A DNA stretch of 64,000 nucleotides, from NCBI GenBank assembly GCA_963701115.1, contig OY969566.1, positions 2,598,097 through 2,662,096 of the forward strand. The letters run 5' to 3'. The stretch's first letter is position 1, and each line of letters opens with the position of its first letter. Of this stretch, positions 34,500 to 35,214 are shown piece after piece. The notes beneath the pieces are model-generated. The model had not been told where the DNA came from, searched no databases, and saw only the letters and a list, made by a program, of their open reading frames with translations. A program made the position numbers and the translations under genes. This stretch comes from an uncultured Gammaproteobacteria bacterium. GTDB taxonomy: Bacteria > Pseudomonadota > Gammaproteobacteria > Xanthomonadales > Rhodanobacteraceae.

Positions 34500-34535
34500 T
34501 TGACACCCGCGGCACTCTCCGTGAAAATGCGCGGC
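34500..34535 (+). promoter_or_regulatory. Sigma70 stable-RNA-type promoter of the tRNA-tuf operon
   Basis: TTGACA (34500-34505), 17 bp, GAAAAT (34523-34528), GC-rich discriminator gcgcggc; A/T tracts upstream. Confidence 0.7.
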
Positions 34536-34544
34536 TCCGTGTCT

Positions 34545-34700
34545 GGAGGGATACCCAAGCGGCCAACGGGGGCAGATTGTAAATCTGCTTAACCTTCGGT
34601 GGTTCGACTAAGTTCGCTGGGAGCGAACTTGAACGCGACGCGAAAGCGGCGCGGCCCCGGAGGGGCGGAGGGCAGGATAGCCCGACGCAATCCACCTCCC
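34545..34700 (+). pseudogene. Degenerate tRNA-Tyr copy with an 82-nt structured T-loop insertion (RtT-like)
   Basis: First 44 nt match tRNA-Tyr except C32T; variable arm shortened; insert 34608-34689 between TTCGA and ATCC; 3' acceptor strand tcccgga instead of tccctccacca. Confidence 0.85.
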
Positions 34701-34745
34701 GGACAACACGATACGAGGCTGCAGCAACGAAGCATCAAGAATTTC

Positions 34746-34831
34746 GGAGGGATACCCAAGCGGCCAACGGGGGCAGACTGTAAATCTGCTGGCTTACGCC
34801 TTCGGTGGTTCGAATCCACCTCCCTCCACCA
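34746..34831 (+). tRNA. tRNA-Tyr(GUA)
   Basis: Anticodon arm gcaga-ct GTA aa-tctgc, long variable arm, GGTTCGAATCC, ACCA end. Confidence 0.97.
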
Positions 34832-35037: not shown

Positions 35038-35214
35038 AATGGGTCAGCATGGATGCTGGTCTGTAGCTGCCGACAGGAAGTCGGCTGAAGTAACGCAAAT
35101 GGGTCGGCAGGATGCCGGTCTTAAGTCGCCGACAGGAAGTCGGCTGAAGTAACGCAAATGGGTCAGCATGGATGCTGGTCTTAGCTTGCCGACAGGAAGT
35201 CGGCTGAAATAACT
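35038..35214 (+). repeat. Three tandem 58-60-nt units, each with two GGA-loop hairpins (candidate CsrA/RsmA-binding RNA)
   Basis: Units start at 35038, 35098 and 35157; hairpins cagca-tgga-tgctg / cggca-gga-tgccg and gccgac-aggaa-gtcggc. Confidence 0.9.

Follow-up and report, generated by a model that had tools for sequence, protein, structure and literature searches.

What is an 82-nt insert, folded into several hairpins, doing in the T-loop of a second tRNA-Tyr copy at the head of a tRNA operon? The question is raised by a locus in contig OY969566.1, of which a stretch of 64,000 nt was analyzed (the window; coordinates are window positions unless a contig label is given). There, an incomplete tRNA-Tyr copy lies between the promoter and the intact first gene of a Tyr-Gly-Thr-tuf operon, on the same strand as the stable-RNA genes. 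We find that the insert is the core cassette of the TLR/RtT family (TLR, tRNA-linked repeat), in an unusual fused form. The family is already known, including in this bacterial order, the Xanthomonadales; what is new here is the fused upstream form with a truncated 3' copy, in a known and functionally unexplained family. The locus as a whole is very likely best explained as a TLR/RtT cassette in a relic tRNA-Tyr, i.e., as a fused upstream variant of this family, and we are more confident still of two parts of this explanation, the family identity and the relic status of the tRNA body. A preliminary description, made from the letters alone, had reported a pseudo-tRNA-Tyr with an 82-nt multi-hairpin T-loop insert, a C32T change, a short variable arm and a broken acceptor, and it was correct to the base in all of these.

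The insert belongs to the TLR/RtT family

The preliminary description had pointed to a link to RtT and proposed a search with the corresponding Rfam model (RF00391, gathering score 45 bits). This search gave a divided answer. At the gathering threshold, Rfam gave no match on the pseudo-tRNA. In a permissive scan of 196 nt against all 4227 families, RtT aligned over its full length (model positions 1-130) to 34582-34697, with 17 bits and an E-value of 0.47; this weak match on the window copy is, taken alone, a lead only. By contrast, sister copies in relatives reach 45-61 bits. Among 61 related genomes, six have full-length matches above the cut-off and dozens more lie at 30-43 bits; the matches in the same Tyr-Gly-Thr operon score 60.7 (G053), 46.8 (G013) and 45.4 bits (G018).

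The link also holds in the opposite direction. R1, a covariance model built from units of this order only, has 30 training rows that include the window unit; its E-values are rough (short calibration), and its matches in Escherichia coli and across the class are independent of the window training row. R1 matches the units of the E. coli tyrT-tyrV operon, three of them behind tyrV (40.2, 38.8 and 32.7 bits) and a fourth in the tyrT-tyrV spacer (26.2 bits, E 7.6e-6), as well as units behind serX. Its best matches in the whole K-12 chromosome lie behind the 5S rRNA in rrnD, rrnA and rrnB (48.5-49 bits). The matches of the Rfam RtT model and of R1 are thus reciprocal between E. coli and Xanthomonadales units. 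At E ≤ 1e-4, R1 detects the family in 57 of 151 genus representatives of the class (∼38%), often in several copies.

The layout that had been given for E. coli proved right as well: its RtT units read GGTTCGAC...AATCC followed by the 3' end of tRNA-Tyr, with the elements in the order found in Xanthomonadales units. In the window unit, the conserved core consists of GGTTCGAC, hairpin 1, GAAC, hairpins 2-4 and T-loop positions 59-60. Because units of E. coli and of other hosts share this order, the TTCGA and ATCC that enclose the insert are the family's usual bracket. The peculiarity of the window unit is that its left bracket is a whole tRNA body, which makes the cassette look as if it had been inserted at T-loop 58/59.

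The cassette is maintained and the tRNA body is a relic

Pairing in the cassette was assessed in a MAFFT alignment of 30 units, in which we designated the four hairpins ourselves, and in a model alignment of 69 distinct units, which leans toward structure; the MAFFT figures are the safer ones. In the MAFFT alignment, 88% of cells pair and 17 of the 24 pairs have both-sided changes, a result reached in 0 of 500 shuffles; when one strand was slid as a control, pairing was only 34-47%. In the model alignment, 93% of cells pair and both-sided changes occur in 22 of the 24 pairs. Stem covariation in relatives, which the preliminary description had singled out as informative, is therefore present. 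Across the 69 units, the loops are better conserved than the stems. GGA is found in the loop of hairpin 4 in 63 of the 69 units, in that of hairpin 1 in 54/69, in that of hairpin 3 in 33/69 and in the linker between hairpins 3 and 4 in 26/69, and the loops of hairpin 2 are mostly of the GNRA type.

The two components of the unit have had different fates in relatives. The insert is conserved across at least 20 species. The tRNA body is identical to the true tRNA-Tyr in four species; elsewhere it carries uncompensated changes, such as an anticodon changed from GTA to GAA (L015) or a broken T stem (L009, L031), and in L008, L021 and L004-L007 (unit 1) it is barely recognizable or replaced. Hairpins 2-4 and the resumed tRNA sequence ATCCACCTCCC are kept even where the tRNA body has decayed, and the ATCCACCTCCC segment is retained in all upstream-type units of relatives. 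Because the body decays uncompensated while the insert stays conserved, it is the cassette that is being maintained, with the tRNA body as a relic. For the same reason, the earlier suggestion of a domesticated tRNA-mimic leader RNA does not stand as worded. In the cassettes of relatives, no reading frame or start codon is conserved.

Anatomy of the fused unit and its operon

The features of the fused unit are collected in the table. The relic is identical to the true tRNA-Tyr over 34545-34589 apart from C32T, and its variable arm reads ttaaccttc, 5 nt shorter than tggcttacgccttc in the true gene. The cassette enters between T-loop positions 58 and 59. The 3' strand of the relic acceptor is GGACAAC rather than TCCACCA, which leaves four of seven acceptor pairs and no CCA. 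ARAGORN and the Rfam tRNA model (RF00005) call the true Tyr, Gly, Thr, Gln and Trp genes, and neither calls the relic copy a tRNA. The predicted fold of a 161-nt stretch has a z score of −3.4, with 0 of 200 shuffles as good. The same architecture is present in independent assemblies of at least nine related species, which argues against an assembly artefact.

Features of the fused tRNA-Tyr/cassette unit and its surroundings in the window
Feature	Position	Strand	Description
Operon promoter	34500-34528	+	TTGACA, 17-nt spacer, GAAAAT, then GC-rich discriminator; 10/12 consensus matches
Relic tRNA-Tyr 5' body	34545-34607	+	First 63 nt of tRNA-Tyr: acceptor 5' strand, D arm, anticodon arm, short variable arm, T-stem 5' strand, TTCGA (positions 54-58, at 34603-34607)
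TLR/RtT core cassette, 82 nt	34608-34689	+	Model R1 114 bits; covariation; weak full-length Rfam RtT match
Hairpin 1	34610-34630	+	Loop GGG(A); then GAAC
Hairpin 2	34634-34653	+	GAAA loop
Hairpin 3	34654-34666	+	GGA loop; then linker GGA
Hairpin 4	34670-34683	+	AGGAUA loop; then tail GACGCA
Resumed tRNA-Tyr sequence ATCCACCTCCC	34690-34700	+	T-loop 59-60, T-stem 3' strand, 4 nt of acceptor 3' strand
Diverged end (GGACAACACG...) and 45-nt spacer to true tRNA-Tyr	34701-34745	+	GGAC(A/G)ACA(A/C)G conserved in genus
Intact tRNA-Tyr(GTA), gene copied in the relic	34746-34831	+	53.4 bits

The operon is on the plus strand throughout. Its promoter lies ∼16 nt 5' of the relic unit and is the sole promoter-like site before tRNA-Tyr; where relatives lack the extra unit, this promoter stands immediately in front of tRNA-Tyr (sequence match over query positions 4-128). 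Because the only promoter-like site is upstream of the relic copy, this copy should come first in the Tyr-Gly-Thr-tuf transcript, in agreement with the preliminary description. The neighboring genes encode L25, peptidyl-tRNA hydrolase (Pth), YchF, a thioesterase and EF-Tu; as noted earlier, no transposase or integrase lies nearby.

The spacer between tRNA-Gly and tRNA-Thr (35038-35214) holds three tandem units of ∼60 nt with two GGA-loop hairpins each (cagcaUGGAugcug, gccgacAGGAAgucggc), which have only a faint match to the Rfam RsmW family (18.4 bits). Together with the leader cassette, they bring the predicted number of GGA-loop hairpins in the operon transcript to about nine.

Upstream and downstream units in relatives

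In the genus of the window, the Tyr-Gly-Thr operon carries two kinds of unit. Downstream units have the classic layout: one to four of them follow tRNA-Tyr in tandem, repeating every 153-165 bp, and the full ATCCACCTCCCTCCACCA stands at their end. Upstream units precede tRNA-Tyr in one or two copies with a period of ∼205 bp, contain the tRNA-Tyr 5' body and end in ATCCACCTCCCGGAC(A/G)ACA. The window carries one upstream-type unit, and copy number ranges from 0 to 4 between species.

A downstream unit begins with an inverse copy of the 3' end of its host gene, followed by (A/G)TGAGAA, a partial T-stem 3' strand, a short linker and GGTTCGAC; then come the four hairpins and, from T-loop position 59 on, a sequence identical to the 3' part of the host gene. 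Downstream-type units of relatives thus do terminate in the 3'-end sequence of the gene that precedes them. The inverse copy, of 7-11 nt, was present in all 11 downstream units tested; this feature and (A/G)TGAGAA were derived here from these 11 units and the Rfam consensus. The window unit is without the 5' inverse copy and (A/G)TGAGAA and has the tRNA body in their place.

In other genera of the order, units lie behind tRNA-Gln, tRNA-Ser (three isoacceptors), tRNA-Glu and the transfer-messenger RNA (tmRNA), and their bracket is the same as that of the units behind tRNA-Tyr. Hence, the recurrence in other T-loops that the preliminary description had raised is borne out, with many copies located at this T-loop junction in other tRNAs and in tmRNA. 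Among the tRNA-adjacent family units, 61 of 63 are in sense with the tRNA. Units after the tmRNA gene occur in at least three species (L042, L043, L045) and end in a copy of the tmRNA 3' end, CTCCCGCCACCTCCACCA. At L036 842-1050 (G048:C8), the model of the sX4 family (RF02223, 105.8 bits) spans tRNA-Ser(CGA), a terminator and the start of an RtT-family unit; because the model spans both, the sX4 "sRNA" (small RNA) family overlaps a tRNA gene and a TLR.

The upstream units of L013, L016 and L031, which are from different species, have ∼50 nt nested inside hairpin 4 (GGCGACGGCATGGATGCCGGAGGT...CAACGCAGGAGC.GTTG). This nested element, a repeat within a repeat, is also present at L053, ∼1310-1400.

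Further copies in the same genome

A BLAST-type search of the own genome with the insert, as the preliminary description had suggested, returned only the window copy itself; the window cassette variant is single-copy, and other copies appear only with R1. At G000:C1:3347051-3347376 (L053 1471-1796), two tandem 163-nt pseudo-tRNA-Ser(TGA) units lie after serS and upstream of the true gene. Each consists of 37 tRNA-identical nt, a 76-nt cassette that immediately follows the anticodon and a further 12 nt in which the tRNA sequence resumes. Still further upstream of this pair lies a third, larger pseudo-tRNA-Ser variant with a nested insert.

Other copies differ in orientation or in context. Behind tRNA-Phe (minus strand), at G000:C1:2328298-2328565 (L058 1501-1768), there are two downstream-type units (CGGTTCGAT...TCCGTCCTCGGCCACCA), the core of which matches R1 solely on the strand opposite to the tRNA; because of this, the cassette appears to be inverted between correctly oriented T-loop halves. 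At G000:C1:3789330-3789865 (L063), csrA, tRNA-Ser(GCT) and a terminator hairpin are followed by a family unit in reverse orientation, which carries the last 15 nt of tRNA-Ser(GCT) inverted as well; the tRNA end, the terminator and the inverse copy form one long palindrome. Four dispersed copies of a cassette variant (G000:C1:166869, 536830, 1002404 and 1173984; L055-L057) are 94-100% identical, have no tRNA nearby and are embedded in a larger mosaic of short hairpin repeats (e.g., GGCATGGATGCC, GTGGCCAAGAGAAAG). The genome also encodes at least ten Y1 transposases (Y1_Tnp, PF01797). Among the cassette copies examined, we found neither defined termini nor a target duplication, and no clean pair of empty and filled sites.

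Alternative explanations

One alternative, which we regard as possible but unlikely, is that a small mobile or recombining DNA element sits in the T-loop DNA of a spare tRNA-Tyr without any host function, and that the covariation serves the element itself, e.g., through hairpins of single-stranded DNA. The cassettes in the anticodon loops of the two pseudo-tRNA-Ser(TGA) copies, the inverted cassette behind tRNA-Phe, the wholly inverted unit behind tRNA-Ser(GCT), the near-identical dispersed copies in the mosaic repeat, the sequence nested in hairpin 4, the variable copy number and the Y1-transposase genes would all suit such an element. However, termini, target duplications and clean empty/filled sites were not found, no link between cassette and transposase has been shown, and nearly all tRNA-adjacent units are in sense. 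Moreover, the GNRA-type and GGA loops are conserved while the stems covary, and simple insertion leaves unexplained the host-specific inverse and direct copies of the tRNA end in each downstream unit. The narrower idea of the preliminary description, a small element that targets T-loops, is possible. In its favor, the cassette is found also in an anticodon loop, inverted and away from tRNAs; the fused form does not single out such an element, since GGTTCGAC...ATCC brackets every family member and recombination between GGTTCGA repeats could equally give the fused form. An integrative element that recombined within the T-loop part of tRNA-Tyr could likewise have left a scar (attL/attR): the stretches of tRNA genes that code for the T-loop or the anticodon loop are frequent targets of integrases, and in its usual form a family member is flanked by a direct repeat of the tRNA 3' end. 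This is very improbable and was ruled out on account of the housekeeping neighborhood, with no integrase or cargo among the neighbors, and of the ∼205-bp unit without cargo. Units of only 150-205 bp in tandem arrays, the presence of the same cassette behind 5S rRNA in E. coli and the fact that the displaced part here is the 5' half, not the 3' half, also speak against a scar, and no integrase-bearing relative of the cassette with a matching attP was seen.

That a duplicated tRNA-Tyr has simply decayed around chance junk, with neither family nor constraint, would agree with the pseudogene-like decay of the tRNA body and with the score of the window copy below the Rfam cut-off; yet at least 20 species keep the insert, 17-22 of its 24 pairs show compensatory changes, the cassette recurs behind other tRNAs, tmRNA and 5S rRNA, and it is present in more than a third of the genus representatives (57/151). 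Already contradicted by the covariation and the reciprocal model matches, this reading is scarcely credible. A working tRNA-Tyr gene whose intron-like T-loop insert is removed from the RNA is hardly conceivable either, even though the insert lies exactly at 58/59, where the T-loop fold tolerates extra nucleotides, and the D and anticodon arms are intact in the window copy. Three of seven acceptor pairs are gone, as are the discriminator base and the CCA end, and the long variable arm, which the bacterial tyrosyl-tRNA synthetase needs in tRNA-Tyr (class II), is destroyed; in homologous copies the anticodon is mutated or the T stem broken, family members of the usual form lack a 5' tRNA half altogether, and we know of no splicing system for such a T-loop site in bacteria. 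A functional intron-bearing tRNA was therefore rejected, given the acceptor/CCA loss, the loss of 5 nt from the variable arm, the lack of an ARAGORN or RF00005 call on the relic and the decayed homologues. Finally, the E. coli annotation places tpr, a 29-aa arginine-rich open reading frame, inside rttR, and one frame of the cassette here is arginine- and glycine-rich, which would fit a small basic protein. The cassette lacks both an ATG and a conserved start, each of the three frames is interrupted by stops or shifted between species by 1-2-nt indels in the loops, and the substitutions follow compensatory pairing rather than a codon-like pattern; for want of a start codon and a conserved frame, Tpr-like coding was rejected, and we give it almost no credence.

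A possible function and origin of the fused unit

Returning to the cassette as the maintained part of a fused TLR/RtT unit, we suggest that the unit is transcribed from the single promoter of the operon as the first element of the Tyr-Gly-Thr-tuf transcript. Cleavage by RNase P at the true 5' end of tRNA-Tyr, 45 nt downstream, would then release a leader RNA of ∼200 nt, which the hairpins of the cassette would protect for a time. The released RNA would display three GGA-bearing hairpin loops and one GGA linker, and, by analogy with the E. coli homologues RrA, RrB and RrF, the GGA loops may bind CsrA/RsmA. Such binding would tie the availability of CsrA/RsmA to the activity of a stable-RNA promoter. 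Co-transcription and release of the leader are, in our judgment, probable; CsrA/RsmA binding as its function is a tentative proposal by analogy, and rather a doubtful one. The genome encodes CsrA (csrA), and RrB binds CsrA in vitro via GGA motifs (PMC8144298). RsmU, a known RsmA sequester of Xanthomonas, is confined to Xanthomonas (PMC7694677). The view that Xanthomonadales are without any RsmA-sequestering RNA is outdated given RsmU, Xanthomonas-restricted though it is.

Several observations weigh against this interpretation, in part or as a whole. The window copy scores far below the 45-bit cut-off of the Rfam model, it matches the tRNA 3' end over 11 nt, not 18-19 nt, and the intact tRNA-Tyr lies downstream of it, not upstream as in the family. 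G-U pairs exceed A-C mismatches only slightly (27 vs 16), a weak strand signal, and because this excess is small, RNA-strand-specific selection is not proven. The link to CsrA rests on analogy, GGA-loop hairpins are common in the dispersed repeats of the genome, and the GGA motif may reflect the repeat family rather than protein binding. In E. coli, deletion or overexpression of rrA, rrB and rrF has modest, puzzling effects, and TLRs are described as having "no known function" (PMC8144298).

Two routes to the fused form can be envisaged. In a tyrT-unit-tyrV-like ancestor, a deletion between the GGTTCGA of the first tRNA-Tyr and the GGTTCGAC of the following unit would join the tRNA body to the cassette; alternatively, the cassette would have been inserted into a duplicated, spare tRNA-Tyr. 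Both routes fit. The spacer behind the fused unit is unlike both the promoter leader and the spacers of downstream units. The T-loop motif structurally tolerates extra nucleotides after position 58, and this tolerance may explain why the junction recurs.

We have also considered a more far-reaching scenario, which we think improbable: the cassette could be a self-propagating module that enters loops of stable RNAs (at T-loop 58/59 or after the anticodon) and rebuilds its ends from the 3' end of the adjacent gene as an inverse and a direct copy. The fused pseudo-tRNA would then be the fresh, unprocessed state of insertion and the source of the classic downstream repeats, and the GGA loops would possibly have been co-opted as CsrA/RsmA decoys coupled to growth rate. 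If so, the decoy loops of the leader would be supplemented by the six GGA hairpins between tRNA-Gly and tRNA-Thr.

Comparison with known systems

[quoted passage not shown] Known since 1978, the family has no accepted function, and an early claim that RtT acts in the stringent response was withdrawn (PMC8144298). The repeats of the tyrT-tyrV operon (rttR; Egan & Landy 1978 and Rudd 1999, as cited in PMC8144298) share with the window unit the setting in a tRNA-Tyr operon, with an E. coli unit ∼33 nt upstream of the tRNA-Tyr gene tyrV, and the series GGTTCGAC, hairpin, GAAC/GAGC, hairpin, GCCC-GAAG-GGGC hairpin, GA, hairpin, AATCC and tRNA-Tyr 3' strand. Unlike these repeats, the window unit has a full tRNA 5' body instead of the inverse-copy segment and TGAGAA, keeps 11 nt of the tRNA 3' end without CCA, stands first in the transcript rather than behind a tRNA and scores 17 bits with the Rfam model. 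Within the same bacterial order, RtT was found by an Rfam scan and sX4 was annotated in Xanthomonas campestris pv. vesicatoria (PMC3300014; Rfam RF02223); there, the units are of the downstream type behind tRNA-Ser, and no fused pseudo-tRNA form is described.

The sponge RNAs of the Csr/Rsm systems (CsrB/C, RsmY/Z and Xanthomonas RsmU; PMC7694677) resemble the window unit in that several GGA motifs are exposed in the loops of hairpins, and csrA is present in the genome. The window unit differs from them in having only three to four sites and no promoter of its own, with binding that is putative, and no Rfam Rsm or Csr family matches it. Compared to REP/REPIN repeats, which are moved by Y1/RAYT, the genome has four near-identical dispersed variant copies and at least ten Y1_Tnp genes; no link between the two has been shown, and the window variant is single-copy.

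The sRNAs RrA, RrB and RrF, located between T1 and T2 of E. coli rrnA, rrnB and rrnD (PMC8144298), are the best E. coli matches of R1. They share the four-hairpin order, the GGA motifs, co-transcription with stable RNA and an end that copies the 3' end of the upstream gene. Their host is 5S rRNA, and they consequently have no T-loop halves; they also lie behind a terminator. RrB occupies the rrnB T1-T2 spacer (L061; E. coli K-12 NC_000913.3:4171832-4171923; 49 bits to R1), which ends in a copy of the 5S rRNA 3' end, AACTGCCAGGCATCAAAT, and equivalent sites exist in rrnA and rrnD. For RrB, binding of CsrA and Hfq has been demonstrated in vitro (PMC8144298); for the window unit, any such binding is putative. 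One TLR thus sits in the rrnB T1-T2 terminator that is used in countless plasmids.

Because the window locus has the cassette inside an otherwise complete tRNA copy, the GGTTCGAC...ATCC bracket of all members can be recognized as the two halves of a T-loop. To this, the comparison adds a covarying four-hairpin cassette common to Enterobacterales and Xanthomonadales, in which GGA in the loops is the best-conserved unpaired feature; an inverse copy of the tRNA end, specific to the host, in each classic unit; and a cassette that can be placed in other loops, in both orientations and away from tRNAs. An unexplained repeat is thereby turned into two ideas that can be tested: that it is a decoy for CsrA/RsmA linked to the transcription of stable RNA, or that it is a mobile cassette that targets loops.

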